DNA from: Minisyncoccota bacterium
GTDB taxonomy: Bacteria > Patescibacteriota > Minisyncoccia > Phycocordibacterales > JACOZG01
Direction: 5' to 3'
Assembly: GCA_036517595.1 (NCBI GenBank)
Contig: DATDVJ010000037.1
Coordinates: 1 to 41,826 of the forward strand
DNA: 41,826 nt
In this document: positions 4,672 to 41,140 of the stretch, piece by piece
How the letters are laid out: every line of letters starts with the position of its first letter
Numbering within the stretch: position 1 is the stretch's first letter
Program-made: the position numbers and the translations under genes
The notes under the pieces: model-generated
Database searches by the model: none
Told to the model about the DNA's origin: nothing
The model's input: only the letters and a program-made list of their open reading frames with translations

Positions 4672-5585
4672 ATGGCTTGTTTGTCCCCTAAAAATTGCAA
4701 ACTGAAAATCACCCTGATTATTTTTTGTCTTAGCCTTCTTTCCTTTCCACTTCTGGCCTCCGCCACCACCGTCTTCATCACCTCTGGCACCAGCTGGACC
4801 GTGCCGAGTGATTGGACGAATACCAACACGATCGAAGTCATCGGGGGTGCAGGGGGGGGTAGCAAATACGGTGATGGAGGTGGGGGGGCGTATGCCAAAA
4901 TTTCCAATCTCACGACACTCACCCGCGGTGGATCGGTGACGATTCAAATTGGCCAAGGCGGTCCTGGTGGTAACAGTAACGGTGGTAATGGCACCGATAC
5001 ATATTTTAACGGTTCAGGCACAACTTGTTCTGACCAATCAGTTTGTGCCGAAAATGGAGTTAGGGGGTCAAACTTTACTAGTGGGAATGGTGGCGCTGGT
5101 GGTGAATATAATGATCCTAATTACGGTGGTGCTGGTGGCGGTGGTGGTAATGGTGGTGGTACCGCGGGAGCTAATGGTGCCGTCGGTGCTCCCGGTAGTA
5201 GGCCAGGTGGGGCTGGAGGTAATAATAGTTTAGGGTTTGGCGGTGGAACTGGCGGTACCAGTGGTGCTGGTGGTGCCGGTAGCAAAGGTGGTGGTGGTGG
5301 TGGTGCCTCTTTTAATAATGGTGTTGTTGGCTATACCGGTAGTGTTGGTGGTGCTGGCATTGAATGGGATTCTACTCACGGTTCCGGCGGGGGGGGAGTG
5401 GTTCATCGAACTGTAGTGGTGGTGCCACTGGCGGTGGTGGGGCCTTATATGGCGGTGGCGGTGGTGGTGGTTGTAATTTGGGTGGGGCTGGAGCCGCCGG
5501 GATCATTGTCGTCACCTACGCGCCGGAGAAGACGCGCGTTATTCGCCTGCACGGGGTGCGTCTCGACGGGGTCCGATTGCAATAG
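4672..5585 (+). CDS. Secreted glycine-rich repeat protein, interrupted by a frameshift in a G8 tract (pseudogene or phase-variable)
   Basis: Signal peptide, then the FITSGTSWTVPSDWTNTNTIEVIGGAGGG motif and long GGxGG repeats. The frame from 4672 is homologous to the paralogue only up to GIEWDSTHGSGGGG. After the G run at 5389-5396, homology continues in the frame of ORF 5364..5585 (..ALYGGGGGGG..GIIVVTYAPEKTRVIRLHGVRLDGVRLQ*). Confidence 0.7.
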
Positions 5586-5696
5586 TTTTACTGTCAAGGA
5601 CAGTCCTTGACAGTGGTCCTAATGAAAGGATGCGGTCTTTCTTTTTCATCAAAAACCTCACTCTTAAAGTATTTACGACCGTACGAACTTTAAGAG

Positions 5697-6020
5697 TTAA
5701 ACCAACTTCTGTAGTTCCTTTTTGAGTATCGGAATATCGGTGACGATCGTATCCCAAACGACATCCAAATCAATTTCGAAATAATTGTGAATGGCTTGAT
5801 CTCTGAAGCCAGCGATGTCCTTCCATGGTAGATTTACTAATTCTTTTGTTTTAGAAGAAACTTTTTTGGCTACTTCGCCGATGAGTGTCAGTTGCATAAT
5901 TATCGCGCTTTGGGTCTTGGTATCGACAATAAATTTTTCTCTATCCAAACCATTGACAAAAGATTCAATCTTAGCGACGGACTCTAATATTTGCTGGATG
6001 TACACAACATCATCCTTCAT
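5697..6020 (-). CDS. hepT: HepT-like (DUF86, HEPN) toxin
   Basis: 107 aa with the RxxxxH HEPN motif in FRDQAIHNYFEIDLD. Overlaps the upstream nucleotidyltransferase gene by 11 nt. Confidence 0.85.
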   Translation of the reverse strand: MKDDVVYIQQILESVAKIESFVNGLDREKFIVDTKTQSAIIMQLTLIGEVAKKVSSKTKELVNLPWKDIAGFRDQAIHNYFEIDLDVVWDTIVTDIPILKKELQKLV

Positions 6021-6320: not shown

Positions 6321-6674
6321 CTATTTGGTCAGAGTCACGCTCTCCACAATCCGTCGGAAAGTCGCAGGTTCATGTCCAGCGAGATCGGCGAGAATTTTGC
6401 GATCAAGTTCGACGCTATTTTTTTTCAGCAGGCCCATGAAGTGACTGTAGGAAAAACCGAGTGGCCGGACGGCAGCATTGATTTTCACTTGCCACAGTGC
6501 TCGCGCGCCGCGCTTCTTCTCGCGGCGATGGCGGAAGGCGTGCGCGCCAGCGTGAAGCAGGGCAGTTTTCGCCTCGCGTTCCTTCTTGCTTCGGCCGAAG
6601 CGGTAACCCTTAACTTGTTTAAGGACGCGCCGGCGATGTTTCGTGGCGATTGTCCCTCTTTTAACTCGTGGCAT
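6321..6674 (-). CDS. rplT: 50S ribosomal protein L20
   Basis: MPRVKRGTIATKHRRRVLKQVKGYRFGRSK; last gene of the infC-rpmI-rplT operon. Confidence 0.95.
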   Translation of the reverse strand: MPRVKRGTIATKHRRRVLKQVKGYRFGRSKKEREAKTALLHAGAHAFRHRREKKRGARALWQVKINAAVRPLGFSYSHFMGLLKKNSVELDRKILADLAGHEPATFRRIVESVTLTK

Positions 6675-6694
6675 ATTTAGATTTTATTTAAGTC

Positions 6695-6886
6695 CTAAAT
6701 TGTTGGCAAGTAAGATCCAAGCAATTTCCGGTTGATTTGGAAAGGGACCAAGCGCTTCGCGGCCATTTGCCCGCGTCGTCGCTCTTTGGCATTGAAGTGG
6801 TTCTGCCCGCCGCGGCGTGACAGCACTTTACCCCGGCGGGTCACCTTGAGACGCTTGGCATAAGATTTATTGGTTTTGATACTCAT
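6695..6886 (-). CDS. rpmI: 50S ribosomal protein L35
   Basis: 63-aa basic protein with KTNKSYAKRLKVTRRGKV, located between infC and rplT. Confidence 0.95.
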   Translation of the reverse strand: MSIKTNKSYAKRLKVTRRGKVLSRRGGQNHFNAKERRRGQMAAKRLVPFQINRKLLGSYLPTI

Positions 6887-6895
6887 ATTTAAATT

Positions 6896-7429
6896 TTACT
6901 TGGCGCGTTCAATGATTAGTGATAATCCTTTCGGTCCTCGTTCCGGCCCGCTCGCGGTCCGGTAACTCACGGTGATAAATTTCAACAATCGGTTGAGTCG
7001 ACCACGCAAGAACTCTTGATCGAAGTATTTGGCTCGCCCCCGCAGGTATAGTTCTAATTTGACGCGGTGGCCCTCTTCGAGGAAGCCAGAAGCTTTGGCG
7101 GCCTTAATCTCCAGATCGTGGTCGCCAGTGCCAATTTTGATCTGAAGTGACTTGGTCTCGGTCTGGTGGGCGTTGGCGCGGGCCTGTTTTTGCTTCTTAT
7201 TCTCGAGGTACTGGAACTTGCCGAAATCCATGATTTTAGCCACCGGAGGGTTAGCCGCCGCCGAAACCTCAATCAGATCCGAGCCGATCGCTTGAGCCTT
7301 GGTGAGAGCTTCGGAGAGAGACAGAACACCCAAATTGGCGCCCGTCTCGTCAATGACGCGTAAGGTGGGAGCGGTGATCTGATGATTGATACGGATTCGC
7401 ACTTTCAAAGGCTCGTAAGTTACTGGCAT
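6896..7429 (-). CDS. infC: Translation initiation factor IF-3
   Basis: RINHQITAPTLRVIDETGANLGVLSLSEALTKAQAIGSDLIEVS..PPVAKIMDFGKFQY plus the C-terminal domain. Confidence 0.95.
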   Translation of the reverse strand: MPVTYEPLKVRIRINHQITAPTLRVIDETGANLGVLSLSEALTKAQAIGSDLIEVSAAANPPVAKIMDFGKFQYLENKKQKQARANAHQTETKSLQIKIGTGDHDLEIKAAKASGFLEEGHRVKLELYLRGRAKYFDQEFLRGRLNRLLKFITVSYRTASGPERGPKGLSLIIERAK

Positions 7430-7604
7430 ATCCTAGTCGACCCACAGCCAAAAGTCAACCATCGAGGTGGTAAAGATGATGAAAAAAGACCCCGGGCGGT
7501 GACGCTTTCAAACTCTAGTTTCTATCCTATCTTTGTTTCTGCTTTTGTCAACCTGTGGTCCCGAATTTTTTCTCACTCTTGTGCTAGAATACTAATATAA
7601 AATT

Positions 7605-8912
7605 GTGGATACAGCGCATCGAATTAAAAATTTCGCGGCTTTAGCTCGAACACCAGTTCGAGAGGCCGCGCTCAAATTAGTGGAGGTCGCTCTGGCGTCA
7701 ATTGATACGAGGGCCGTGATTCGTCGGGCGGTCGCTTTTATCTCTGGTGGCCTCCGTATCGCCGAAACCACTTTTCCTCTCACTGACAACGGACGAATAT
7801 TTGTTGTTGGGGTTGGTAAATGTTCACTTGAGGCGGCACTCGAGCTCGAGACGATACTCGGCGAGCGGATCACCGCTGGGGTAGTGATTGATGTCCGTTG
7901 TGTTGAAGTGCCGCGGCGAGTACGCTTCTGCCTCGGTGACCATCCTTTCCCATCCGAGAAGAATATCACCGCGACGGGCTCGATCATCGAACTTTTATCG
8001 AAGGCGGATCAAGCTGATTTTATAATTTTCATTATCTCCGGTGGTGGCTCGGCGCTTCTCTGCCAACCCGGTGATCACACTTGTCTTGAGGAAGTGGCGG
8101 TGACTAATACTCTTTTTCACTCCGGCGCGACGATTCACGAAATCAATACCGTGCGGAAGCATTTGTCGCTCGCTCGGGGGGGCTATCTGGCCAAACATGC
8201 TTACCCGGCGCGGGCCGTAGCTCTAATTTTTTCCGATGTGCCCGGGAATGATCTGGGCGTTGTTGCTTCCGGTCCAACGGTCAAAGATATTTCTACCAGC
8301 GAAGAGGCGAAGAAGATAATTATTAAGTACAATGCGACCGGTGAGAGTGAATCAATCATCAAGCACCTGATCGAGACTCCTAAGGAAGACAAATATTTCG
8401 AGCGAGTGACGAATCTTCTTCTTCTGACCAACGAGACGCCGCTTCGAGCAATGGCCGAAGCGGCCGCCGGGCTCGGGTTCACGCCGATCATCAAAAATTC
8501 GGCGGTTACCGGTGAAGCGCGGCTGACCGGTGAAGCGATTGCTCGAGAGCTTCATCTCGCCCCACTCGGGAGTGCCCACTTGTATGGTGGTGAGACCACG
8601 GTGGTGATTCGTGGCGTGGGGCATGGTGGGCGCAATCAAGAATTGGCCCTTGGCGCCTTACCCCAGCTCTCGGCTGGGGAATGCCTGATCTCTTTCGCTT
8701 CGGACGGCGTGGATAACGGCACTTACGCCGGCGCGCTCTGTGATACAATAACTCTTGAACGCGCTCAAACGGTCGGCCTTGATCCTGTTGCTCTACTTGA
8801 TCGAAATGATTCACAGTCTTTTTTCTCAGCCGTCGGTGACTATCTCGATATTGGCTACACCGGGGCCAATGTTTCTGATTTAATAATTGCTTTAAAATCA
8901 AATCATGTCTGA
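7605..8912 (+). CDS. Glycerate 2-kinase / hydroxypyruvate-reductase-like protein (DUF4147 + MOFRL)
   Basis: VVGVGKCSLEAA, IISGGGSALL, TVRKHLSLARGG and the C-terminal ASDGVDNG..GANVSDL fit the MOFRL family. GTG start. Confidence 0.8.
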   Translation: MDTAHRIKNFAALARTPVREAALKLVEVALASIDTRAVIRRAVAFISGGLRIAETTFPLTDNGRIFVVGVGKCSLEAALELETILGERITAGVVIDVRCVEVPRRVRFCLGDHPFPSEKNITATGSIIELLSKADQADFIIFIISGGGSALLCQPGDHTCLEEVAVTNTLFHSGATIHEINTVRKHLSLARGGYLAKHAYPARAVALIFSDVPGNDLGVVASGPTVKDISTSEEAKKIIIKYNATGESESIIKHLIETPKEDKYFERVTNLLLLTNETPLRAMAEAAAGLGFTPIIKNSAVTGEARLTGEAIARELHLAPLGSAHLYGGETTVVIRGVGHGGRNQELALGALPQLSAGECLISFASDGVDNGTYAGALCDTITLERAQTVGLDPVALLDRNDSQSFFSAVGDYLDIGYTGANVSDLIIALKSNHV

Positions 8913-11337
8913 TCGGGCATCAGCTCTAATCCTTCAATTCCGAGAACTAACGATTGACGATATCCCGTTGGTTGGCGGCAAGAACGCGGCTTTAGGCGAG
9001 ATGGTCTCCAACTTTGCGCCGCTTGGAATTGCTGTTCCGGATGGTTTCGCCATCACGGCAACTGCTTATAATCATTTTCTTGACTCGACGGCCTTGCGGC
9101 CGGCGATCGAACGATTACTTAATGGACTTAATACGCGGAAGGTTCGTGATCTGGCGCGTCGTGGGGCGGCGATTCGTCACTTGATTTCGAGTGCCAACTT
9201 GCCCGACGATCTTCGCTCAGCGATTACCGCTGCTTATCATGAGTTAGGTGGCGGTGCGCCAGAAGGAAGCGATGTCGCTGTCCGGTCGTCGGCGACGGCC
9301 GAAGATTTGCCCGATGCTTCCTTTGCTGGCCAACAAGAAACCTATCTTAATATTCGTGGTCTTCCAGCGCTTGAACAAGCGGTTAAAGATTGCTTCGCTT
9401 CACTCTTCACTAATCGAGCGATTTCTTATCGGGTCGACAAGGGCTTCCCGCCCTTCACTATCTCACTTTCGGTTGGCGTTCAGCGGATGGTTCGGAGCGA
9501 TAAGGGGGTAAGTGGGGTGGCTTTCTCCCTCGATACCGAGACCGGTTTTCCCGAAGTGGTGGTGATCAATAGTTCCTATGGTCTTGGCGAGATGGTGGTG
9601 CAAGGCAAGGTGACACCGGATGAGTTCACTGTTTTCAAGCCGACTCTGGCCCTCGGTTTCCAAGCCATCATCGCCCGGAATTTAGGGACGAAGGAGACGA
9701 AAATGATTTATGGTCACGGTCAGAAATCGACTGAAGTGGTGGCGGTGTCGGCGCGCGATCGTGTGGCGTCGAGTCTCACCGACGACGAGATTATCCGTCT
9801 CGCTAGTTGGGTGGTTAAGATTGAGAAATATTTTTCGGAGCGGCGGGGGCGTTATCAACCAATGGATACCGAATGGGCGAAGGATGGATTAAGCGGCGAA
9901 TTATTTATCGTTCAAGCTCGACCAGAAACAATCCATGCACTCGCCGAGAAACACAGTTATCAAGAATATCGTTTGAAAGCGCCACCGCCGGTCGCTCTGG
10001 TGACCGGCGCGGCCGTGGGGTCAAAGATCGGCGCCGGTCGCGTGCGGGTGATCAAGAGTGCCGCGAAGATTGCCGAGTTTAAGGAAGGGGAAGTTCTGGT
10101 GACCAAAATCACTGATCCCGATTGGGAACCGATCATGAAGATTGCTTCGGCGATTATCACCGATCAGGGCGGTCGGACGAGCCATGCGGCAATTGTCTCG
10201 CGCGAGCTGGGAATCACTTGTATTGTCGGTACTGGCGACGCGACCAAAGTTCTTAAGACCGGAATGGCGGTAACTGTTGATTGTTCGGCGGGTCGGACTG
10301 GGCGAATCTATCCGGGCATTCTCGATTTTGAAAAAATTGAACACCGTCTCGATCAAGTGCCAGAGACGCGAACGAAAGTGATGGTCAATATTGGTTCACC
10401 GGACGAGGCCTTTAGCCAATACCGCTTGCCGGTCGCTGGCATTGGGCTTGGTCGGATCGAGTTTATTATCACCGAGCACATCAGAATTCACCCACAAGCA
10501 TTGATTGATTTCGATACCCGGCCGGCCGTCACACGCAAGGATGTCGCTCGACGGAAGCTCTATGCCCAGATTAAAGCGTTAACGCCCGGGTATAAAGATA
10601 AGCGGACCTTCTATGTTGACGAGCTGGCCGAAGGGGTGGCCAAGATCGCGGCGATAGTCTATCCCCAGCCGGCAATCATTCGTTTCTCTGATTTCAAAAC
10701 CAATGAATATCGCACCTTGATTGGTGGTGAGCAATATGAACCAGTGGAAGAGAATCCGATGATCGGCTGGCGCGGGGCATCACGCTATTATCATGATAAC
10801 TTCCGCGCCGCTTTCGCGCTCGAGTGTGCGGCGATTAAGAAGGCGCGCACGGCGATGGGGCTCACTAATATCATTCCAATGATTCCCTTTTGTCGGACCC
10901 CGGAAGAGGGGAGAAAAGTGCTTGATCTGATGGTCACTTTTGGCCTTGATCGGGTTGCTGATTCTAGCTTAAAAATTTATATGATGTGCGAGATTCCTGC
11001 CAATATTATTCTCGCTGACGATTTCCTCAATCTTTTCGATGGTTTCTCGATCGGTTCAAATGATTTGGCCCAATTAACTCTTGGTCTTGATCGTGACTCG
11101 GGGATTGTCAATAAGATTGCCGATGAGAATAATACCGCCGTTAAGCGTCTCATTGAGATGGCTATCGAGAAAGCGAAGGCTCACAATAAATACATTGGTA
11201 TCTGTGGCCAGGCGCCGTCGGACTTCCCAGACTTCGCTGCTTTCTTGGTGGCGAAGGGGATTGATAGCATTTCTCTCAATCCCGATACGGTGATCGCGAC
11301 AACCCTGGCGATTGCCGAACAGGAGAAAAAAATATGA
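8905..11337 (+). CDS. ppsA: Phosphoenolpyruvate synthase (pyruvate, water dikinase)
   Basis: 810 aa with the N-terminal LVGGKNAALGEM ATP-grasp region, the phosphohistidine motif GGRTSHAAIVSRELGI, and a C-terminal PEP-utilising TIM barrel. Confidence 0.92.
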   Translation: MSDRASALILQFRELTIDDIPLVGGKNAALGEMVSNFAPLGIAVPDGFAITATAYNHFLDSTALRPAIERLLNGLNTRKVRDLARRGAAIRHLISSANLPDDLRSAITAAYHELGGGAPEGSDVAVRSSATAEDLPDASFAGQQETYLNIRGLPALEQAVKDCFASLFTNRAISYRVDKGFPPFTISLSVGVQRMVRSDKGVSGVAFSLDTETGFPEVVVINSSYGLGEMVVQGKVTPDEFTVFKPTLALGFQAIIARNLGTKETKMIYGHGQKSTEVVAVSARDRVASSLTDDEIIRLASWVVKIEKYFSERRGRYQPMDTEWAKDGLSGELFIVQARPETIHALAEKHSYQEYRLKAPPPVALVTGAAVGSKIGAGRVRVIKSAAKIAEFKEGEVLVTKITDPDWEPIMKIASAIITDQGGRTSHAAIVSRELGITCIVGTGDATKVLKTGMAVTVDCSAGRTGRIYPGILDFEKIEHRLDQVPETRTKVMVNIGSPDEAFSQYRLPVAGIGLGRIEFIITEHIRIHPQALIDFDTRPAVTRKDVARRKLYAQIKALTPGYKDKRTFYVDELAEGVAKIAAIVYPQPAIIRFSDFKTNEYRTLIGGEQYEPVEENPMIGWRGASRYYHDNFRAAFALECAAIKKARTAMGLTNIIPMIPFCRTPEEGRKVLDLMVTFGLDRVADSSLKIYMMCEIPANIILADDFLNLFDGFSIGSNDLAQLTLGLDRDSGIVNKIADENNTAVKRLIEMAIEKAKAHNKYIGICGQAPSDFPDFAAFLVAKGIDSISLNPDTVIATTLAIAEQEKKI

Positions 11338-14426: not shown

Positions 14427-14882
14427 TTAGAATTCAGTTTTCAAAGTTCTCCTAATCTCTCGATCAATCTCGCGGCGCTTGAGGTGTTCGCGTTTATCAT
14501 GACCTTTCCGTCCGCGCGCGACCCCGATCGCGAGCTTGATGGAGCGACCTTTACTGTACACCCTAAGAGGGATAATTGTCAATCCTTTCTTTGCTTCGAT
14601 GCCGGCGAGAGTGGTAATTTCAGATTTCGTGAGCAAGAGTTTACGCCAGCGCATGGGGTCATAACCCGCGGCGAGATTGGCCGGTTGATAAGGCGAGATG
14701 GTGGCACCCGAGAGGAAGGTTTCACCGCCGCGGACGATCACGAAGCTACCGGCGATATTCATTCGACCAGATTTAATCGCTTTCACTTCATGACCCGCAA
14801 GCTCGAGGCCGGCCTCGAGCGTTTCCATAATCTCGTAACGGAAGCGTGCCTGACGGTTTTCGGCAAAGGTTGGCATAATCAA
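14427..14882 (-). CDS. smpB: SsrA-binding protein
   Basis: FAENRQARFRYEI..LELAGHEVKAIK..RKLLL..E; 151 aa, next to ssrA. Confidence 0.95.
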   Translation of the reverse strand: MIMPTFAENRQARFRYEIMETLEAGLELAGHEVKAIKSGRMNIAGSFVIVRGGETFLSGATISPYQPANLAAGYDPMRWRKLLLTKSEITTLAGIEAKKGLTIIPLRVYSKGRSIKLAIGVARGRKGHDKREHLKRREIDREIRRTLKTEF

Positions 14883-26590: not shown

Positions 26591-26955
26591 AAATTTAATT
26601 TAAGGACTAATTCAAGTTTCTCTTCAATTTGCCGTCCGAAACGATCGGCACCGGCGAGCCGGATTATATTATAACCCTGTGCCAGTAGCAATTGACTTTC
26701 GAAGCGGCCTGTGTGATCGGGGGTAAGTCTCTCGCCGTTTAAGAAAAGTTTGTCAACTTGGGTCACCCGTCCGCGCACCGTGACGAGAGCTGAATCAATA
26801 CTCGCGCCATTCCTCGGTGAATCAATGATGATTTGCGGGCCGTTGATTAGACCGCGCATTTGATAAGTACCATAAGTAAGGACGGCGAGAAGAAGGGTCG
26901 TCGCGAAAAGGTATTTAATTTTAGTTCGCGCTGGAGTTAAATTCATCATGACCAT
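26587..26955 (-). CDS. Hypothetical membrane-anchored protein with a beta-rich ectodomain
   Basis: TM helix [15 protein letters not shown], then [31 protein letters not shown]. The start is ambiguous (Met codons at 26955, 26949 and 26946). Overlaps the ftsK end and the recA start. Confidence 0.5.
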
Positions 26956-29095
26956 TATTTGCTGTAATAATACTTCTGCGTTCATAAACTTCGCGCGCCT
27001 TCGCGCCGTCACCCGGGCCGATCATCTTCCTCTCCTCAAGCATATCGAGCAACCGCGCGGCGCGAGCGTAACCAACCTTGAGCCGCCGTTGAAGGAAGGA
27101 GGCCGAAGCCTTACCGCTCTCCATCACCAATTCTCGCGCTTCCTCGTAGAGTGGATCATCGGTATTATCACCTTCGTCATTATCATCAATTGTTATTCCG
27201 CCCTCGCCCATGATGATCTCATCGGTTAGTTCATCGCCGTAATGAGTGATGAGCCATTTCACCACCTCTTTGACCTCGCGTTCCGAAATGAAGGCCGATT
27301 GGAGGCGAAGCGGTTTCGACATGTCGCCAGCCAAATAGAGCATGTCGCCAGCCCCTAGGAGTTTTTCCGCGCCGGCCATATCAAGAATAGTGCGCGAGTC
27401 AATGTGAGAAGCCACTTGGAGAGCAATGCGCGAGGGGATATTAGCTTTAATGAGACCGGTGATAACTTCAACTGATGGTCGTTGAGTGGAGAGAATGAGG
27501 TGGATGCCGACGGCGCGTGACATTTGCGCCAGGCGAACGATAGCCGCTTCGAGTTCGCGGGGGTAAGTGGCCATGATGTCGGCGAGTTCATCAATGATGA
27601 TTACAATGTAGGGTAGACTCTCCAGCGCCTCATTGGCTTGCGTTTTGCGTTTTTCACTCTGCATTTCTAGGTGATACGTTTGGATGTCGCGCACGGCGTG
27701 TTTTTCGAGCACGGTGTACCGACGTTCCATTTCTTTGATTGCCCACCTAAGAGTGAGAATTGCTTTCTTTGGATCGGTGATCACTGGCGTGAGGAGATGG
27801 GGAGTTTTGTTGTAGATTGTCAGTTCGACTCGTTTCGGATCAATCATAATGAAACGGAGAGTCTCCGGAGAATTGCGATAGAGAAGGGAGACAATGAAGG
27901 TATGGATGACGACTGATTTCCCGGAGCCGGTGGCGCCGGCGATCAGGAAGTGCGGCGCTTTGGCAAGATTGCCGAAGTGTGCTGGTCCCGAGATCCCCCG
28001 ACCTAAAGAGACGAGAAGTGAATGAGGTGATTCGGTAAATTGGGTAGCTGTAAGTAGGGAAGCCAAGCCGACCATTGACTTAGTGCTGTTGGGGATCTCG
28101 ATCCCGACGAGTGATCGGCCGGGGATTGGCGCTTCGATCCGCAAGGGGTGGGCGGCCAGCGCCAGAGCCAAATCATTTTGGAGAGCGACGATGCGCGAGA
28201 GCTTGACGCCTTCGGCCGGTTTGAGCGCGTAGCGGGTGATGGAGGGGCCGATCGAAACTTCATCCATCTCGACAATGATACTAAAGTTTTGAAGCGTGCG
28301 TTTGATGATGGTCGTGTTGGCCTTAATATCGCCAGCCCCGGGTTTGCCCGCATCTCGTTCCAAGAGAGAGACCGGCGGGGCCTCAAAGACATTAGTCTGT
28401 CGTCTGGCGATTTTGCCGATCAGCGCACCGAAGCCCGCTCCGACCGCTTCTTCGTCGTCGTTGGACGCCACGCTTCCAATTGGAAGCGTGGCGTCCAATT
28501 CTTCTTGGGCACTCTTAATTCTAAGTGTTTTAATTGGCAATGATGCCTCGCCGATAATTGTGGGGAGGTTTTCTTTTTTCCGCCACCGCCACCACTTGTT
28601 GATTGGTCGACCGAAGAGTGTCCACTTCAAAGTGAAGGTGGTATCGAAAATGATAAGAGCCGCAATTACCATCACTGCCGCCAAGAAAATCACGCTAGCG
28701 TAGACGTCAAAAAATTTAATGAGCGGGAGAGAGATAAGCCAACCAATACTCCCACCGGCTTGGTTACCCAAATCATCGAAGAGGATGCTGATTAGGCCAA
28801 GCGAGCTGATGAAAAGAATTAGACCACCGAAGAGGCGACCACCGATGATATTCGGCCGAACTGGTCTAAGGAAGGAGATTCCCAGAAGAATTAAACAGAG
28901 GGGGAAGAGGAAGTAGCCATAGCCGAATACTGACACCCCGACGCGATAAACAATTCTTCCGGCCGCACCGGCGACTCCAGCACTCGATAGCAGGAGAAAC
29001 AACGCTAGAACTAATAGGACAATTCCTAAAACACCCTGTTTAGTTTCGTCCTTGAGATCAAGTCGTTTTTTTTTCGGCTCGGCTGTTTTTTTCAT
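26921..29095 (-). CDS. ftsK: DNA translocase FtsK/SpoIIIE
   Basis: N-terminal multi-TM domain, linker, motor domain with PHFLIAGATGSGKS (Walker A) and IIIDELAD, and a C-terminal gamma winged helix (SASFLQRRLKVGYARAARLLDMLE). Confidence 0.93.
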   Translation of the reverse strand: MKKTAEPKKKRLDLKDETKQGVLGIVLLVLALFLLLSSAGVAGAAGRIVYRVGVSVFGYGYFLFPLCLILLGISFLRPVRPNIIGGRLFGGLILFISSLGLISILFDDLGNQAGGSIGWLISLPLIKFFDVYASVIFLAAVMVIAALIIFDTTFTLKWTLFGRPINKWWRWRKKENLPTIIGEASLPIKTLRIKSAQEELDATLPIGSVASNDDEEAVGAGFGALIGKIARRQTNVFEAPPVSLLERDAGKPGAGDIKANTTIIKRTLQNFSIIVEMDEVSIGPSITRYALKPAEGVKLSRIVALQNDLALALAAHPLRIEAPIPGRSLVGIEIPNSTKSMVGLASLLTATQFTESPHSLLVSLGRGISGPAHFGNLAKAPHFLIAGATGSGKSVVIHTFIVSLLYRNSPETLRFIMIDPKRVELTIYNKTPHLLTPVITDPKKAILTLRWAIKEMERRYTVLEKHAVRDIQTYHLEMQSEKRKTQANEALESLPYIVIIIDELADIMATYPRELEAAIVRLAQMSRAVGIHLILSTQRPSVEVITGLIKANIPSRIALQVASHIDSRTILDMAGAEKLLGAGDMLYLAGDMSKPLRLQSAFISEREVKEVVKWLITHYGDELTDEIIMGEGGITIDDNDEGDNTDDPLYEEARELVMESGKASASFLQRRLKVGYARAARLLDMLEERKMIGPGDGAKAREVYERRSIITANNGHDEFNSSAN
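28461..28498. repeat. 38-bp perfect palindrome (class A, core GCTTCCAATTGGAAGC) inside the ftsK linker
   Basis: TTGGACGCCACGCTTCCAA|TTGGAAGCGTGGCGTCCAA, checked base by base. Read in the ftsK frame it gives DATLPIGSVAS. Confidence 0.95.
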
Positions 29096-29117
29096 TTATG
29101 AATTGTAGCATAAATAA

Positions 29118-29154
29118 AACACCCGATGTTGGGGCTCCCTTAACATCGGGTGTT
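29118..29154. repeat. Hairpin AACACCCGATGTT-(11 nt)-AACATCGGGTGTT in the ftsK / HTH-gene divergent region
   Basis: Perfect 13-bp arms. A related hairpin lies at 29921-29955. On the minus strand it is followed by TTTTATTTAT. Confidence 0.8.
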
Positions 29155-29162
29155 GTGATGCC

Positions 29163-29197
29163 TAGACATTCACTCTGTCCTATATATAATATAGGAC
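29163..29197 (+). promoter_or_regulatory. Candidate promoter (TAGACA-16-TATAAT) overlapped by the inverted repeat GTCCTATAT-ata-ATATAGGAC
   Basis: TAGACA at 29163-29168, TATAAT at 29185-29190. The 9-bp-arm inverted repeat spans 29177-29197 and abuts ATG 29198, so there is no room for a Shine-Dalgarno sequence. Confidence 0.45.
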
Positions 29198-29920
29198 ATG
29201 TTTGAGACAAAACAGCAAAAGGACACAAATTCTGTATTGGACATAAAGGACAGCATAAAAGACAGAGCCAATAAACTCGTAGCGGCGATGTATCTAGTCA
29301 CTAATTTTCTTGATGATCTAGACCAAATTAAATGGAAGTTAAGACATAAATCTCTCGATCTGAAGGTTAACTTAACACTCGGTGTTAAAGATGCTCCAAC
29401 ACCGAGTGTTTGGCCGATTGAAACAATTTTGTCCGATATAGCCGAGATTATTTCTCTGATTGATATCGCTGTCCTTGATCGGCGAGCGTCAGCGATGAAT
29501 TTCTCCATTCTTCGTCAGGGATATGTTGATTTGCAAACGGAATCTGAGAATTATATCAATGGTGATTGGTATAAAGAAGCTTGGCTTCCAATTGGAAGCC
29601 AAGCTTCTCTCGCCGGCGCCAGGAAAGAAGTTAAGCTTCCAATTGGAAGCTTAACTTCGCCAAATAAAACCGCCAAACTAGGTCAAAATCAGCGTAAAGA
29701 CGCCACGCTTCCAATTGGAAGCGTGGCGTCCAGCAGCCCCCGCCGGGAGAAAATCGTTGATTTCATCAAGCAACACGATTGGTCATCAATCAAAGAAATT
29801 GCTAAATCCATCACCGAAGTTAGCAGTAAAACTGTCCAACGAGAATTATCTGAATTGGTCCGAATGGGGAAATTGAAGAAAACTGGCGAACGTCGTTGGA
29901 GTCGATATAGCTCGAATTAG
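29198..29920 (+). CDS. Hypothetical protein with a C-terminal winged-helix (DeoR/MarR-like) HTH and a palindrome-rich linker
   Basis: The C-terminal REKIVDFIKQHDWSSIKEIAKSITEVSSKTVQRELSELVRMGKLKKTGERRWSRY looks like a wHTH. The central linker contains three LPIGS palindromes. Confidence 0.6.
   Translation: MFETKQQKDTNSVLDIKDSIKDRANKLVAAMYLVTNFLDDLDQIKWKLRHKSLDLKVNLTLGVKDAPTPSVWPIETILSDIAEIISLIDIAVLDRRASAMNFSILRQGYVDLQTESENYINGDWYKEAWLPIGSQASLAGARKEVKLPIGSLTSPNKTAKLGQNQRKDATLPIGSVASSSPRREKIVDFIKQHDWSSIKEIAKSITEVSSKTVQRELSELVRMGKLKKTGERRWSRYSSN
29575..29608. repeat. 34-bp perfect palindrome (class A)
   Basis: AGAAGCTTGGCTTCCAATTGGAAGCCAAGCTTCT; translated as EAWLPIGSQAS. Confidence 0.95.
29627..29658. 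repeat. 32-bp perfect palindrome (class A)
   Basis: GAAGTTAAGCTTCCAATTGGAAGCTTAACTTC; translated as EVKLPIGSLTS. Confidence 0.95.
29699..29730. repeat. 32-bp perfect palindrome (class A), same sequence as the ftsK copy
   Basis: GACGCCACGCTTCCAATTGGAAGCGTGGCGTC; translated as DATLPIGSVAS. About 34 nt are identical to 28464-28497. Confidence 0.95.
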
Positions 29921-29955
29921 ACACGCGATGTTGAAGGAACCTCAACATCGAGTGT
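29921..29955. repeat. Hairpin ACACGCGATGTTGA-(7 nt)-TCAACATCGAGTGT just after the HTH gene stop
   Basis: 14-bp arms with one mismatch. Same sequence family as 29118-29154. Confidence 0.7.
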
Positions 29956-30287
29956 CGGCGGTGTTGACACCTAACCCCGCCTGCGCTACCCTTAGGTCTA
30001 CGCTCTGGTTATTACGGTTATCCACACTGTGTTTGGCAGACTGGTTCCGGTGTATTATACTTAAGTGTGCACTTTGACAAAGTAATATTCGGTTAGTTTT
30101 CAATCACTTCCCGAACATACAGAACGCCAAGTTATTTTTTTTCAGTTCGTCTGCTTGTCCTTCCATTCCATTTTGCTAAAGCCCTTGCTCTTCCGTCTGC
30201 CAGTCGGCGGATCGGATCGGCGGGGGATTTAGAAATTAGTAAAGTAATTATTAGTTAATAGTTAATTATTATTAAAATCGATCCATT

Positions 30288-32450
30288 ATGAGTACTAAGA
30301 AATTTTTTCTCGGGGTCGCGATGGTGGCGCTTCTGGTTGGGGTGTCTTTCACTCCAGTTAAAGCTGACACACTTTCTGATCTCAACGCGCAGATCCAGGT
30401 CCTGATGGCCCAGATCTCCGCGCTCTCGGGTGGCATGACGCCACCGGCAACCTCTGGTTATGTCTTCACTACAGACTTGACCATAGGTAGCACGGGCGCT
30501 GATGTTACGGCGCTCCAGAATGCCCTTATTAGCAATGGTCAAAGTATTCCTGCTGGCGCCACTGGTTACTTCGGTGCCCAGACTAAGGCCGCGGTGATTG
30601 CTTGGCAAAAGGAGGCCGGTCTTCCCGCCACAGGTTTCTTCGGTCCAATGAGCCGCGCGGCGATGAACGCGATGCCGAGCAGTGGTCCCGGTAGCACGGG
30701 CTATCCTCCTTATGTTCCCCCGGTGTCGAGTGGTCCTTGCAGTGGCGGCGAGATGTATAACTCTATGACTGGTGCTCTCTGCAGTACCGGCTTGGCGCTC
30801 TTACCCGCTGGTTGCACGAGTACGGCAGGGTTCAGCCCTTTGACCGGAGCTTCCTGTTCTAGTTCGGTTGCTCCGCTTCCAGCTGGTTGCACGACCGCGA
30901 CTGGGTTTAGTGTGACGACTGGCCAATCTTGTTCAACAGGCACAGGTGGTGCAACAGCTGGCACCGAAGGTTCAATTACGACTCGACTAGGAACTACTCC
31001 AACACCCGACACCAACATTCGTAGGACAACCGATGTCCCAGTCTATGGTGTTGAAGTTGAGGCGGTGAGTTCTGATATGACGGTTGATCGTGCCGACTTG
31101 CAATTCGCAGTTACGACCTGGGATTCGACAACTTCGTTCGGAACTGGTTCAGTTCAGAATCCTGGTGCCTTCATCAAGAATATTAAGGCGTGGGATGGCA
31201 GTACCCAGCTCGGCTCATGGGATGTTTCTGCTTCTAGTTTCTCTAAGGATTCTTCTGACCGGTACCACATTATTTTGAGTGGTCTCGGTTCTAGAGTGAC
31301 TAAAGGGATGAAGAAGAATATCACTTTTAGCGTTAGTGTTAGTTCTATTGGTACAACCGATGTTCCTCGCCGCGTGGCAGTCCAGGGTTATGCTGGTAAC
31401 ACCCAGAATATTCGCGCGACCGACAGCGTTGGTCTTCAGTCTTATGCTGATATGTCTGGATCAGCCAATACCCGCACCCATGACTTCAAGGCCGCTGGTA
31501 ATGCTACTTTGACAGTTACCACCAATAGTGCGGCGACACCTAAAGCTGGCAATACTCGCATTAATAGTACCACTGGTATCACGAAGAAGATTATGCAGGC
31601 CTTCGACGCCAGAGCGGAGACTGGTGATGCTAAAATCACTAAGCTCTATGTTGGGACAAATGCCACTTCTTCCACTGGTGTGCCTTCTACTTACTATCTC
31701 TGTGACGGCAGTGACACAACTTGTGCTAGTCCGTTATATAGTGTTACGGCTGGTGCCACAGATAACCTAGAAGCCGCCTTTACCAGTATGAGTATTTTGG
31801 TGCCACAGGATACAACTAAGACTTTCTTGATTGCGGCTGATTTCCCAACTACGGTTGGCGGTCAGCAAGCTAGTTCCTCAATCCACACCAATGCGGTGCA
31901 GTGGGAAAAGCCGGACGGCTCTACCGCTAGCACCACGCCGTCAAGCGAAATCGTTGGTACTGATCAATACTTCGCGGCCGCGGTTCCACAGTGGACAATG
32001 GTTAGTGCGTCAGTTGATCCATTGGAAATTCTTGGCACTTCTGCGCCAGCCACTACTACGGCGACGTATCACATGGTACTTAAGGTCACGGGTAGCGGCG
32101 GAGCTCTCACTAAACCAGTTCTATCTGATTTCGTGATTAGATTTGCTTCGTCAACGGCGACGACTTACTCGGCCGCCAATGCCACCTCAACGTCTCAAGG
32201 AGATAACGTCACTGGTTATCTAACTGATGTTACTCCAACCGAGGCAACGGTGGGTGATGGTGGTTCCTACACAGTTACTTTGACGGGTATCTTGAGAAAT
32301 AAAGCCTTGTACGGTACAACTAATATCACTGGACCGTACTTCATGGTTATTACTTCGGCTCAAGCGGCTGTCGGTGGCAACACGGTTGCCCAGACTTGGA
32401 ACTTGGATAGCTTCAAGACGCCGTCTCTCAACACACCTTCTGGTTACTAA
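30288..32450 (+). CDS. Large secreted surface protein: coiled-coil, PG-binding domain, three Cys-x-TG-x-Cys motifs, long beta-rich region
   Basis: Signal peptide ..PVKADT; GSTGADVTALQNALISNGQSIPAGATGYFGAQTKAAVIAWQKEAGL (PG_binding_1-like); CSGGEMYNSMTGALCS, GCTSTAGFSPLTGASCS, GCTTATGFSVTTGQSCS. Confidence 0.75.
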   Translation: MSTKKFFLGVAMVALLVGVSFTPVKADTLSDLNAQIQVLMAQISALSGGMTPPATSGYVFTTDLTIGSTGADVTALQNALISNGQSIPAGATGYFGAQTKAAVIAWQKEAGLPATGFFGPMSRAAMNAMPSSGPGSTGYPPYVPPVSSGPCSGGEMYNSMTGALCSTGLALLPAGCTSTAGFSPLTGASCSSSVAPLPAGCTTATGFSVTTGQSCSTGTGGATAGTEGSITTRLGTTPTPDTNIRRTTDVPVYGVEVEAVSSDMTVDRADLQFAVTTWDSTTSFGTGSVQNPGAFIKNIKAWDGSTQLGSWDVSASSFSKDSSDRYHIILSGLGSRVTKGMKKNITFSVSVSSIGTTDVPRRVAVQGYAGNTQNIRATDSVGLQSYADMSGSANTRTHDFKAAGNATLTVTTNSAATPKAGNTRINSTTGITKKIMQAFDARAETGDAKITKLYVGTNATSSTGVPSTYYLCDGSDTTCASPLYSVTAGATDNLEAAFTSMSILVPQDTTKTFLIAADFPTTVGGQQASSSIHTNAVQWEKPDGSTASTTPSSEIVGTDQYFAAAVPQWTMVSASVDPLEILGTSAPATTTATYHMVLKVTGSGGALTKPVLSDFVIRFASSTATTYSAANATSTSQGDNVTGYLTDVTPTEATVGDGGSYTVTLTGILRNKALYGTTNITGPYFMVITSAQAAVGGNTVAQTWNLDSFKTPSLNTPSGY

Positions 32451-32497
32451 TAGCTAACTTGTGCCGATGTCAGGGTTGACCTGATCGGATAGCTAGC

Positions 32498-32533
32498 AAA
32501 AACCCCCTAATCCCTAACGGGACGGGGGTTTTT
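32498..32533 (+). terminator. Rho-independent terminator
   Basis: AAAAACCCCC..TCCC-taac-GGGA..GGGGGTTTTT. Confidence 0.7.
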
Positions 32534-32567
32534 GTGTGCTCTCTATCTCCACTCATTCTCACCACCC

Positions 32568-32592
32568 CACTTGGAAGCGAAGCTTCCAAGTG
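32568..32592. repeat. REP-like hairpin (class B): CACTTGGAAGC-gaa-GCTTCCAAGTG
   Basis: 11-bp arms and a 3-nt loop. Ends 13 nt upstream of the transposase ATG. Confidence 0.9.
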
Positions 32593-32605
32593 TTAAAATA
32601 AACTG

Positions 32606-33292
32606 ATGCGGAAAATCGCCTTCGTTAATCAGGAGTTCTATCATATTTATAATCGAGGGGTTGACAAACGCGCCATCTTCTCGGATAGCTATGACTTGCA
32701 ACGACTCTACCAAAGTTTCCAAGATTTTAATTCTCTCGAGCCGATTGGTAGTATCTACGAGCTGTCCTTTTCTCCTCCCGAAAGGCACTTGGAAGCTTCG
32801 CTTCCAAGTGCCAAAAAATTAGTGCGGATTATTTGTTATGCCTTAAATCCAAACCATTATCATCTACTTCTTCAGCAAGAAACAGATAAAGGGATTGAGA
32901 AATTCATGCATCGTGTGGGGACTGGTTTCACTAAGTATTTCAATCATCGTTACAAACGAACAGGCGCTTTATTCCAGGGTGTATTTAAGGCGAGGCATAT
33001 TCAGGATAATAACGACTTACTTCACTTGAGCGCTTATATCAATCTTAACAACAAAGCTCATACGTTGAGAGCAGGAAATAATAATTATCAATCCGCTCTA
33101 GCGCGAACGAGTTGGAATGAGTACGAGCGAAGTGCCACTGGAATTTGCGAAAAAAGTATTATTCTTGAACAATTCTCTGGGGCAGAAGAATATTCTCGGT
33201 TTTGTAGCGAAGCTTTTCAGTTGATTGCTGAAAGAAAACGATCTTCACCCCTCGATTCTTTCGACTTGGAAGCGAAGCTTCCAAGTGATTGA
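32606..33292 (+). CDS. IS200/IS605-type Y1 (HUH) transposase, REP-associated tyrosine transposase (RAYT)-like
   Basis: EFYHIYNRGVDKRAIF, HUH motif in ALNPNHYHLLLQQ, FNHRYKRTGALFQGVFKARHI, and the probable catalytic Tyr in LLHLSAYINLN. Flanked by class B hairpins. Confidence 0.8.
   Translation: MRKIAFVNQEFYHIYNRGVDKRAIFSDSYDLQRLYQSFQDFNSLEPIGSIYELSFSPPERHLEASLPSAKKLVRIICYALNPNHYHLLLQQETDKGIEKFMHRVGTGFTKYFNHRYKRTGALFQGVFKARHIQDNNDLLHLSAYINLNNKAHTLRAGNNNYQSALARTSWNEYERSATGICEKSIILEQFSGAEEYSRFCSEAFQLIAERKRSSPLDSFDLEAKLPSD
32784..32812. repeat. REP-like hairpin (class B, inverted orientation) inside the transposase ORF
   Basis: GGCACTTGGAAGC-ttc-GCTTCCAAGTGCC with 13-bp arms. The loop is the complement of the loop in the flanking copies. 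Translated as RHLEASLPSA. Confidence 0.9.
33264..33286. repeat. REP-like hairpin (class B) at the 3' end of the transposase ORF
   Basis: ACTTGGAAGC-gaa-GCTTCCAAGT. Translated as DLEAKLPSD, followed by the stop codon. Confidence 0.9.
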
Positions 33293-33327
33293 TTGTAGTT
33301 GAATAGTAAATTTGATAGAATTACTCT

Positions 33328-34323
33328 ATGTCACGACGGCTAATGAGCGCAGGTAGTGCGGGAAGTGACTTATTGTGGTTTGTGGCAATTATGACCACCC
33401 TCGGAATTATTTGGTACGCGACGGGTGGTCCGTCGCGTCCAGAAGCTTGGCAGGGGTTGTTTATTGAACCACCATCCCCGATCGGTACCGGCGAGATTTA
33501 TGGCGCCAGTCGCCCACCTCTGCCAGCACCGACGGTACCTATCACTCCGTTTTCATATCAATATCGAGCCACTAGTTTAACGGAACCACCGCTTGTCGCC
33601 CGTTCACCGTGGTATGACCAAGTAAGGATCGATAGCGGTAGTGGGCAATATGAGATTCAACCCAATCAGGAGTACATCACCCTTGAAGCCAATTACAATA
33701 ACTCTGCGCCAATCACGGTGACAGGTTGGTCACTTACCAACGGCAAGAGTCAACCGGACGGTGTGATTATCCCCTATGGCACCCGCCTCTTCATCGGTGA
33801 TTCAGCTAATCTACCAAACATGCCGATCATTTTGGCTCCCGAGGCGCGTCTCGTTTTGACAACTGGCCGGATGCCTAATTCTGATCCCTATGTGATCAAC
33901 GCTAACTTTTTGGTCAACAAATGCAGTGGTTATCTTGATGCTTTGCCTCAATATCGTTTTACCCCCGCGCTCTATAGCTCTTGCCCGGCGCCAATCAAGG
34001 AACCCGGCGTTGATGGTTTAGAAAACGACTGTTATAAATTTGTCTCTCGTTTATCTTCCTGTCACACGCCTAAAGTTGAGCGCAACGCCGACGGCTACGA
34101 GTTTATTGATCGGGTTTCGGGCTTGTCAAGTTACTGTCGCTCTTTCCTGGAAGAGCACTTTAATTACAATTCTTGTGTCAAGTGGCATGAGCAGGACACT
34201 GATTTTTACGGTGATGAGTGGCGCGCGTATCTTGGTCGGACTTGGGAGCTATGGTCCGAGAATCGCGAGACAATTACCCTTTACGACCAACAGGGTAAGA
34301 TTGTAGCCCAAGAAAATTATTGA
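33328..34323 (+). CDS. Membrane-anchored hypothetical protein with a lamin-tail-domain-like segment and a Cys-rich C-terminus
   Basis: TM helix LLWFVAIMTTLGIIWYA; EYITLEANYNNSAPITVTGWSLTNG (LTD-like); several conserved-looking Cys residues near the C-terminus. Confidence 0.5.
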   Translation: MSRRLMSAGSAGSDLLWFVAIMTTLGIIWYATGGPSRPEAWQGLFIEPPSPIGTGEIYGASRPPLPAPTVPITPFSYQYRATSLTEPPLVARSPWYDQVRIDSGSGQYEIQPNQEYITLEANYNNSAPITVTGWSLTNGKSQPDGVIIPYGTRLFIGDSANLPNMPIILAPEARLVLTTGRMPNSDPYVINANFLVNKCSGYLDALPQYRFTPALYSSCPAPIKEPGVDGLENDCYKFVSRLSSCHTPKVERNADGYEFIDRVSGLSSYCRSFLEEHFNYNSCVKWHEQDTDFYGDEWRAYLGRTWELWSENRETITLYDQQGKIVAQENY

Positions 34324-40080: not shown

Positions 40081-40118
40081 GGTCTTAATTAACAAACGGT
40101 CGTACATTAATTAAGACC
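40081..40118 (+). terminator. Hairpin after hicA (possible terminator)
   Basis: GGTCTTAATTAA-(14 nt)-TTAATTAAGACC, preceded by an A run. There is no clear T tail on the plus strand. Confidence 0.35.
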
Positions 40119-40998: not shown

Positions 40999-41000
40999 TA

Positions 41001-41023
41001 ACTTGGAAGTCCGACTTCCAAGT
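41001..41023. repeat. REP-like hairpin (class B variant): ACTTGGAAGT-ccg-ACTTCCAAGT
   Basis: 10-bp arms with a compensatory C:G to T:A change relative to the copies at 32568, 32784 and 33264. Starts 3 nt after the toxin stop codon. Confidence 0.85.
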
Positions 41024-41140
41024 GAGGGCTTTGCATAAATAGGCGAGGAGGAGTAAAATAGGGTTGTCGAACCGCGCGTCGTTTATCTTGAAGCCGGCAG
41101 TGCGAGTCGGGATTAAAAATTAATTTTCAAAATAAATAAT

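Follow-up and report, generated by a model that had tools for sequence, protein, structure and literature searches.

The stretch analyzed here is a 42-kb contig (DATDVJ010000037.1, 41,826 nucleotides) of a Minisyncoccota bacterium, a member of the Patescibacteria; it is referred to below as the window and represents the sequence of this genome that was analyzed. Two divergent genes in it, encoding an FtsK/SpoIIIE DNA translocase and a DeoR-type winged helix-turn-helix (HTH) protein, contain four perfect palindromes, and a gene for a Y1/HUH tyrosine transposase lies about 3 kb from them. Repetitive extragenic palindromes (REP) and their REP-associated tyrosine transposases (RAYT) are textbook extragenic repeats, mainly studied in Proteobacteria, and the relationship of the window's palindromes to a RAYT-like enzyme is the subject of this analysis. 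The host genes and the palindromes, the latter numbered as doublets after the structure described below, are as follows.

26921-29095, minus strand: host gene 1, FtsK/SpoIIIE DNA translocase with the Pfam domains FtsK_4TM, alpha, SpoIIIE and gamma and a hypervariable linker
28461-28498: doublet 1, 38-bp perfect palindrome, TTGGACGC-CAC-GCTTCCAA abutting TTGGAAGC-GTG-GCGTCCAA, in frame in the FtsK linker between the transmembrane (TM) and alpha domains; minus-strand reading LDATLPIGSVASN
29198-29920, plus strand: host gene 2, 240-aa DeoR-type winged-HTH protein with a hypervariable linker ahead of the HTH domain
29575-29608: doublet 2, 34-bp perfect palindrome in the HTH-gene linker (KEAWLPIGSQAS), found in this genome's protein only
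29627-29658: doublet 3, 32-bp perfect palindrome in the HTH-gene linker (KEVKLPIGSLTS), common only to the window and its nearest relative P0002
29699-29730: doublet 4, 32-bp perfect palindrome directly ahead of the HTH domain (KDATLPIGSVAS)

Palindromes in the ftsK and HTH genes

Exact recomputation returned the coordinates and lengths (38, 34, 32 and 32 bp) that a preliminary description of this DNA had reported, together with the sequence shared by all four palindromes, GCTTCCAATTGGAAGC. This 16-nt core is present in four copies in the window against 0.01 expected, none of 100 shuffled sequences reached four, and the longest perfect palindrome in shuffled versions of the window (n = 50) was 18 bp. 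The same description placed all four palindromes inside open reading frames (ORFs) and in inter-domain linkers, in agreement with the Pfam domains, which locate them between the FtsK TM and alpha domains and ahead of the HTH domain. Each of the four is translated in the register that gives L-P-I-G-S. The inner 32 nt of doublet 1 recur unchanged as doublet 4, and the identity of 34 nt between the FtsK copy and the third HTH-gene copy, with the peptide DATLPIGSVAS encoded by both, was likewise recovered as first described. As a hairpin in single-stranded DNA (ssDNA), doublet 1 has a folding free energy of -23.1 kcal/mol (z = -8.3).

Independent assemblies of at least 8 samples yielded the locus in at least 13 contigs, at 99.97-100% identity and with no palindrome damaged. 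Because every one of these independent contigs keeps every palindrome, an assembly artefact is excluded, including the chimeric assembly that the preliminary description had proposed to check.

The hairpin unit and the Y1 transposase gene

Each palindrome is built from a small hairpin, (C)ACTTGGAAGC-nnn-GCTTCCAAGT(G), which is present twice, in inverted and abutting copies. In a doublet, one unit (..GAAGC-nnn-GCTTCCAA) is followed by its inverse (TTGGAAGC-n'n'n'-GCTTC..), and the two abut at CCAA/TTGG without a spacer. The arms beyond the 16-nt core vary among copies, yet they remain complementary; the symmetry of the doublets is broken only at the central 2 nt (AT, CT, AG or GT), which is the position of the hairpin loop. 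More generally the unit can be written (C)ACTTGG-NNNN-loop-NNNN-CCAAGT(G), where NNNN is AAGC in this genome.

A scan of the window for the 8-mers TTGGAAGC and GCTTCCAA returned 8 and 7 occurrences, respectively, against 0.7 and 0.5 expected, and all of them but one fell in the four doublets and in three hairpins of the Y1 gene. The extra 8-mers make up three single hairpins, (C)ACTTGGAAGC-GAA/TTC-GCTTCCAAGT(G), at that gene. Beyond the hairpins at the Y1 gene, the window has five further copies, the doublets among them. Units and doublets have predicted folding energies of -10 to -23 kcal/mol as ssDNA (z -4.8 to -8.3). ORFs contain every one of the four doublets and two of the three units at the Y1 gene, so that the location is not predominantly extragenic. 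The Y1 gene and the single units are listed here.

32568-32592, plus strand: upstream single unit, CACTTGGAAGC-GAA-GCTTCCAAGTG, ending 13 nt ahead of the Y1 ATG and running into a -10-like TAAAAT box at 32594-32599
32606-33292, plus strand: Y1/HUH tyrosine transposase gene, RAYT-like, 228 aa
32784-32812, plus strand: internal inverted single unit, GGCACTTGGAAGC-TTC-GCTTCCAAGTGCC, in frame in the Y1 ORF (RHLEASLPSA, residues ~60-69)
33264-33286, plus strand: 3' single unit, ACTTGGAAGC-GAA-GCTTCCAAGT, encoding the C-terminus of the Y1 ORF (DLEAKLPSD, then stop)
40999-41025, no strand assigned: variant single unit, TAACTTGGAAGTC-C-GACTTCCAAGTGA, intergenic

The last of these is a GAAGTC variant that is also used in the doublets of relatives.

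The Y1 protein matched the Pfam family PF01797 (Y1_Tnp) at 29.9 bits, above the cutoff of 23. The single NCBIfam model that it matched, at a score below the cutoff, was that of the REP-associated tyrosine transposases, which speaks for a RAYT-like enzyme. A comparison of folds was needed because sequence searches of solved structures gave no relative. In a Foldseek search with the AlphaFold2 model (predicted local distance difference test, pLDDT, 80), the top match was 4ER8 (E = 3e-5, probability 1.00), the E. coli REP-associated tyrosine transposase in complex with a REP hairpin. It was the only match with E ≤ 0.001 and was followed by the TnpA proteins of IS608 and ISDra2 (2A6M, 2VJV, 2XM3). 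The HUH motif is H84-Y-H86, and Y144, N148 and H152 lie on one helix; all of these residues are invariant in an alignment of 32 homologues. Their spacing equals that of H59/H61, Y115, N119 and H123 in TnpA-REP (PMC3479197), a correspondence of sequence pattern only. The low-confidence segments of the model (residues ~50-70, 155-159 and 216-228) are the segments encoded by hairpins.

More than 2,700 homologues of the Y1 protein were found; practically all belong to Patescibacteria, and their identity is typically 50-56%. Synteny of the gene is preserved between the window and the related locus L129, with one copy per locus and no second gene copy in any locus. The same spot elsewhere is occupied by a different Y1 lineage (L121) or by toxin-antitoxin genes (L128, where HicAB and ParE genes at 6323-7444 stand in the place of Y1). 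This spot, flanked by the PG-binding gene on one side and the LTD/PKD genes on the other, is therefore variable. Two further loci compared by way of their HTH orthologues, L126 and L127, end short of the Y1 position.

Hairpins at related Y1 genes

Hairpins were surveyed at 84 Y1 genes in total, 80 of the loci having been added by a metagenome scan, with a hairpin finder that counts Watson-Crick pairs only and with ORF length as the proxy for coding. In L129, whose Y1 protein is the closest (76% identical), and in L130 and L131, the gene is bracketed by ACTTGGAAG(C/T)-loop-(G/A)CTTCCAAGT hairpins and holds in-frame internal copies. A hairpin lies 5-30 nt ahead of the ATG in 70 of 82 related Y1 loci and at the stop in 63 of 79, and in-frame internal hairpins are present in 73 of the 84 genes, clustered at about +175 and about +450 nt. 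The window unit at 32784-32812 occupies the family's conserved internal site at about +175 nt. The upstream hairpin extends into a -10-like box of the extended type (…CCAAGTGgTAtAAT), and the ATG follows 6-10 nt after the box.

The outer stem, ACTTGG/CCAAGT, is nearly invariant, and the inner 4 bp vary among genomes with full compensation, 30 different inner-stem words being found in 68 loci. Among 67 aligned upstream hairpins, 127 cells were changed on both sides of the stem, compared with 35 ± 8 after shuffling (a value reached in none of 500 shuffles) and 12-22 in slid controls. Within a locus the inner stem was identical in 89% of hairpin pairs, versus 5.7% between loci.

L121 is at least as near to the window as L129 is (PKD protein 57% versus 45% identical; FtsK ~75%). 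In the same place it has a Y1 gene only 37% identical to that of the window, flanked by unrelated 38-bp palindromes. Because a locus this close to the window combines a divergent Y1 with an unrelated palindrome, hairpin type tracks the Y1 lineage and not the host. The L121 palindromes are perfect, have the form CAAGCCCCGCCCTTGTAC abutting TAGTACAAGGGCGGGGCTTG and occur at 9216-9253 and 9950-9987, flanking Y1, and at 999-1036, elsewhere in the locus; they may be a separate REP or terminal inverted repeat (TIR) family.

Dispersed copies and empty sites

The 16-nt core was also scanned in a collection of one genome per species, in which the Patescibacteria matches form a distinct class with co-varying arms and no T-run; the window copies likewise have no T-run. 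Five Patescibacteria copies lie in long ORFs, all read as LPIGS, in a ComFC-like phosphoribosyltransferase, a XerC/D recombinase, the large subunit of a NiFe-hydrogenase, a HemK-like methyltransferase and an unknown protein, and three further copies are in non-coding DNA. According to the preliminary description these palindromes always encode LPIGS. This is true of the window (four of four), and over all independent coding sites LPxGS is read at nine of ten, the methionyl-tRNA synthetase (MetRS) gene of L126 giving FQLE; the register is thus a bias and not a rule. The window has no orthologue of the L126 MetRS for an empty-site comparison, as the ORF compared is a different protein. Copies of a genome's own word dispersed away from Y1 are mostly in long ORFs, where they are read LG(S/G)xxSK, and some are intergenic. 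No Y1 gene was found beside doublets within the 8-kb loci of the genome collection, stretches that are too short to be informative on this point. About half of all matches to the 16-mer were terminators (A-run/stem/T-run) in Bacteroidota, Vibrio, Pseudomonas and others (L059, L069, L035, L010), and these were set aside as an unrelated, convergent use of GCTTCC-AATT-GGAAGC.

Comparison of orthologues was informative about the origin of the doublets. The XerC/D loop is without the element in 116 of the 120 best matches, proteins 87-88% identical included (…FRRGAKDELDEKARLT…), and the four carriers are L067's own protein and three others. LPIGS elements are missing from 117 of 120 HTH homologues. 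Of the HTH-gene copies, 1 and 2 were confined to the window protein and the relative nearest to it, and variants of copy 3 (doublet 4) were found at its site in seven orthologues, as LPIGS, LPLGS, FPLGS or PPIGS; the site is filled by variants in the orthologues of L121, L123 and L124 and in P0005 and P0010. The residues flanking these variants co-vary as reverse-complement codons demand (T/V, R/R, G/P, K/L, W/Q). The doublets are insertions, since close orthologues are without them, and the ancestral protein motif that the preliminary description had named as the refuting case was not found among the close orthologues examined. Its proposal of a mobile or copy-pasted palindromic element surviving inside coding sequence gains support from this, and from the occurrence of the core in unrelated genes and in non-coding DNA.

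The FtsK linker is hypervariable between nearly identical flanks. In L127 the FtsK gene has a diverged doublet at the window's site, with five arm differences, all of them compensated, and FtsK orthologues without a doublet already encode D(S/A)TLP there. The FtsK linkers of other relatives (L121 5281-5322; L123, L125 and L128) hold different small palindromic units of the CAAGGTTnAACCTTG type, read QGLTLP or GKVKP; in L125 the reading frame shifts at one of these hairpins, and FtsK is called as two genes.

Interpretation

The four palindromes are probably inverted doublets, of the kind called REPINs (REP doublets forming hairpins), of a REP-like hairpin that is cognate to the RAYT-like Y1 enzyme encoded at 32606-33292. 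The observations that argue for this are the anatomy of the sequence, the association with Y1 over 84 loci, the covariation of the stems, the insertion polymorphism, and the RAYT-like fold with its active-site residues. By analogy with the E. coli enzyme, the Y1 protein would mobilize, maintain or homogenize the copies. It would recognize the folded hairpin on ssDNA, cleave it and transfer strands, as described for E. coli TnpA-REP and for IS200/IS605 (PMC3333891, PMC3479197). As a guess, the cut would fall at or near CCAA/GT and AC/TTGG. Such cleavage and strand transfer may seed new hairpin copies or homogenize existing ones. Two units joined as ...GCTTCCAA next to TTGGAAGC... give a long perfect hairpin. 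Patescibacteria genomes have very little intergenic space, and because of this copies would persist chiefly where they do no harm, in frame and in disordered linkers and surface loops, of which FtsK and the HTH protein provide examples. The tolerated register would yield small, flexible peptides (LPxGS, LGSxxSK), so that tolerance of the peptide may explain the reading register.

Several observations weigh against this interpretation. The only NCBIfam match of the Y1 protein, to the RAYT equivalog REP_Tyr_transpos (NF047646), scored 35.6 bits, below the cutoff of 80. When solved structures were searched with HMMER, the single Y1 sequence reached no solved HUH relative, and a 32-sequence Y1 profile gave only spurious weak matches to RNase A. 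The GTAG/CGTC tag that characterized RAYTs need is absent at the foot of the hairpin: in flank logos (68 copies upstream, 63 downstream and 96 internal) the only signals are CAC.../...GTG(G) and the -10 box after the upstream copy. The density of dispersed copies is low: away from Y1, about one true hairpin with the genome's own word was counted per 30 kb (627 kb around the Y1 genes of relatives). L121 retains doublets of the GAAGTC type though its local Y1 has another palindrome. Selection of hairpins for the census inflates the percentage of paired positions, but it does not inflate the covariation, the fixed position or the range of compensated stems. Mobility is something we infer, no transposition or cleavage event having been observed. 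Finally, where a doublet is present at orthologous sites, as in FtsK of the window and L127 and at HTH copy 3 of at least four genomes, it looks old and kept by compensatory change, which fits selection for function as well as it fits mobility.

This last point leads to the view that the hairpins, whatever their origin, are domesticated structural signals kept for a host function in DNA or RNA, for example Y1 autoregulation at its own promoter and ORF, inter-domain translational pausing, mRNA stability or landmarks for replication forks. We regard this as unlikely to be the principal explanation, although it is compatible with a REPIN-RAYT origin. The compensation at orthologous doublets is complete (FtsK of the window versus L127; HTH copy 3 of the window, L121, L123 and L124), the four hairpin positions at the Y1 gene are fixed in more than 80% of the family with the upstream one overlapping the extended -10 box, and all the hairpins lie between folded domains or in low-pLDDT loops. 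However, close relatives differ in whether they have the hairpins, the genes that carry them are unrelated, intergenic copies exist, and homogenization within a genome fits copying as well as selection. There was also no match to an Rfam family, a search over 28000-33600 at a permissive E-value giving nothing but chance matches below threshold, to miRNA and viral elements. Formation of the palindromes in place and without a transposase, by hairpin-templated repair or template switching that perfects quasi-palindromes in repeat-prone linkers, appears improbable. It would account for the perfection of all four palindromes, for the D(S/A)TLP already encoded in doublet-free FtsK orthologues and for the other small palindromic units that fill the linkers of relatives, but it leaves unexplained why the same 16-nt core occurs in unrelated genes of distant Patescibacteria, why this core is the hairpin that brackets Y1 in the same genome, and why the words track Y1 lineages.

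A dimeric HTH protein would bind a palindrome, and three of the four copies are within the HTH gene, so the doublets might be operators of the adjacent DeoR-type regulator in its own gene and in ftsK. That is very improbable, given that 117 of 120 HTH orthologues are without the elements and that elements occur in genomes and genes unlinked to this regulator. A better candidate for the operator is another palindrome, GTCCTATATATAAT..GGAC, which all eight orthologous loci have at the start codon of the HTH gene, and the operator reading of the doublets was rejected in its favor. This conserved promoter palindrome lies at 29178-29198 in the window and at the same position in L121 and L123-L128, abutting the start codon, and it is probably the -10 box and the regulator's own operator, which implies a leaderless mRNA. 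Selection at the protein level for LPIGS as a short linear motif is hardly credible: two proteins do share the peptide, and the register is strongly biased (nine of ten sites), but the codons are identical and palindromic in every copy, flanking residues co-vary as reverse-complement codons demand, non-coding copies and an alternative register exist, and the close orthologues examined have no such segment, none of them encoding LPIGS by non-palindromic DNA.

A REPIN-RAYT system could also be given a more far-reaching form, which we consider possible but doubtful. The Y1 gene and its four cognate hairpins (one over the promoter, two in frame in the ORF and one at the stop) would constitute a conserved, self-referential module in which the substrate of the enzyme dictates two of the enzyme's own segments and the copies evolve in concert, while the system would have shifted into coding sequence in these very compact genomes, where the dispersed hairpins would build and remodel the hypervariable linkers of housekeeping proteins (FtsK, XerC/D, ComFC and the HTH protein), and the doublets at orthologous sites would be selected and domesticated, more than simply tolerated.

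Other hairpin families

The genome is unusually rich in strong hairpins; the window contains 19 (stem of at least 11 bp, loop of at most 16 nt) against about one in block shuffles, several of them within genes. A second hairpin family, AACACyCGrTGTT-N7-11-AACAyCGrGTGTT, is found in the window at 29116-29156, 29374-29410 and 29920-29956, in L126 at 8343-8381 and 9671-9701, and in the FtsK/HTH intergenic region of L127. A copy in the promoter region and another that begins at the stop bracket the HTH gene; inside the gene lies an in-frame copy (TLGVKDAPTPSV) that is kept in most orthologues, and one L126 copy lies in the FtsK linker. The arrangement of this family around the HTH gene mirrors that of the first family around the Y1 gene.

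A third family, ACTGTCAAGGAC-N-GTCCTTGACAGT, occurs in the window at 5590-5614, at the stop of the ORF 4672-5610, and a 41-nt perfect version is in frame in the MetRS-type gene of L126 (1256-1296). At 14801-14820 the window has a 20-bp perfect palindrome, GCTCGAGGCCGGCCTCGAGC, barely above the shuffle maximum of 18 bp; it is read in frame, as LEAGLEL, close to the N-terminus of an ORF on the minus strand whose N-terminal sequence looks SmpB-like. Two hairpins with 12-13-bp stems, at 5658-5699 and 40081-40118, have loops that share TACGACCGT in inverted orientation.

Comparison with known systems

REPtrons and head-to-head REP dimers have been described in Proteobacteria and other phyla (PMC3116915, PMC5581495, PMC3733652). 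The system described here resembles the REP/REPIN-RAYT systems of E. coli (TnpA-REP/YafM) and Pseudomonas (PMC3116915, PMC3333891, PMC3479197, PMC3733652) in having a Y1/HUH gene flanked by cognate short hairpins, in the dispersal of the hairpin, both singly and in inverted, head-to-head pairs that fold into long hairpins, in a sequence that is genome-specific and homogenized within the genome, and in the RAYT-like fold with its Y-x3-N-x3-H helix. Intragenic REPs in linkers and loops are also known, especially in genes for replication and repair, and copies of this kind, often in genes of DNA metabolism, are a further likeness (PMC3733652). In contrast to these systems, the foot of the hairpin here is a conserved CACTTGG/CCAAGTG and has neither a GTAG nor a CGTC tag, the doublets are spacer-free, copy density is low, and the copies seen are mostly intragenic. 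Two hairpins lie in frame in the transposase ORF at conserved positions and one lies over its promoter. The protein is distant (36 bits against the 80-bit NCBIfam cutoff) and longer (~220 aa), and the lineage is Patescibacteria.

RPE-1, one of the Rickettsia palindromic elements (RPE), is about 100-150 bp long, and we know of no dedicated transposase for REPs of the CGTC type. The preliminary description had likened the window's palindromes in principle to Rickettsia palindromic elements, a likeness that holds: both are in-frame palindromic repeats in functional genes, tolerated in surface regions. The elements described here differ in their core, their phylum, the lack of a CGTC tag, their size of 23-38 bp and the cognate Y1 gene adjacent to them. 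RPE-4 and RPE-6 have been classed as CGTC-type REPs (PMC3733652).

The IS200/IS605 elements IS608 and ISDra2 likewise have a Y1 HUH enzyme bracketed by subterminal hairpins that are recognized as ssDNA, and their transposases were among the fold matches (2A6M, 2VJV, 2XM3). Unlike those elements, the gene here is syntenic between the window and L129 with no sign of multiple identical copies, its 5' and 3' hairpins do not differ as left and right ends do but have one and the same sequence, tnpB is absent, and hairpins are dispersed without the gene. The L121 Y1 gene, flanked by 38-bp palindromes unrelated to the ACTTGG hairpin, recalls the TIRYT or 'TIRtron' arrangement of RAYT-like genes with long inverted repeats (PMC3733652); the resemblance concerns the gene of L121 and not that of the window.

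If the Y1 gene and its hairpins are such a system, REP/RAYT systems would extend to Patescibacteria, also known as the candidate phyla radiation (CPR), where the Y1 family is very large, in a version whose hairpins are largely inside genes, the transposase gene included. They would provide a concrete source for the hypervariable, low-complexity linkers of CPR proteins, and the 30 inner stems on one conserved foot would be natural covariation data for the reading of hairpins by RAYT-type enzymes. For annotation, short LPxGS, LGSxxSK and LEAxLPS segments in CPR proteins would be repeat-derived insertions and not functional motifs.

The preliminary description knew of no described family with this core. 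No description of the family was found, and a literature search returned no paper that joins RAYT, REPIN or REP with Patescibacteria, CPR or Parcubacteria; the kind, however, is known, as intragenic REPs and REP dimers (PMC3733652). That the kind has been described, that its likely enzyme is encoded in the same window and that the palindromes have a REPIN-like doublet structure are points that go beyond the preliminary description. What is new is the Patescibacteria lineage, the ACTTGG foot without a GTAG/CGTC tag, the spacer-free doublets, the low density and the mostly intragenic location, and above all the two cognate hairpins in frame in the transposase ORF at conserved positions and the one over its promoter, which evolve in concert with the flanking copies.

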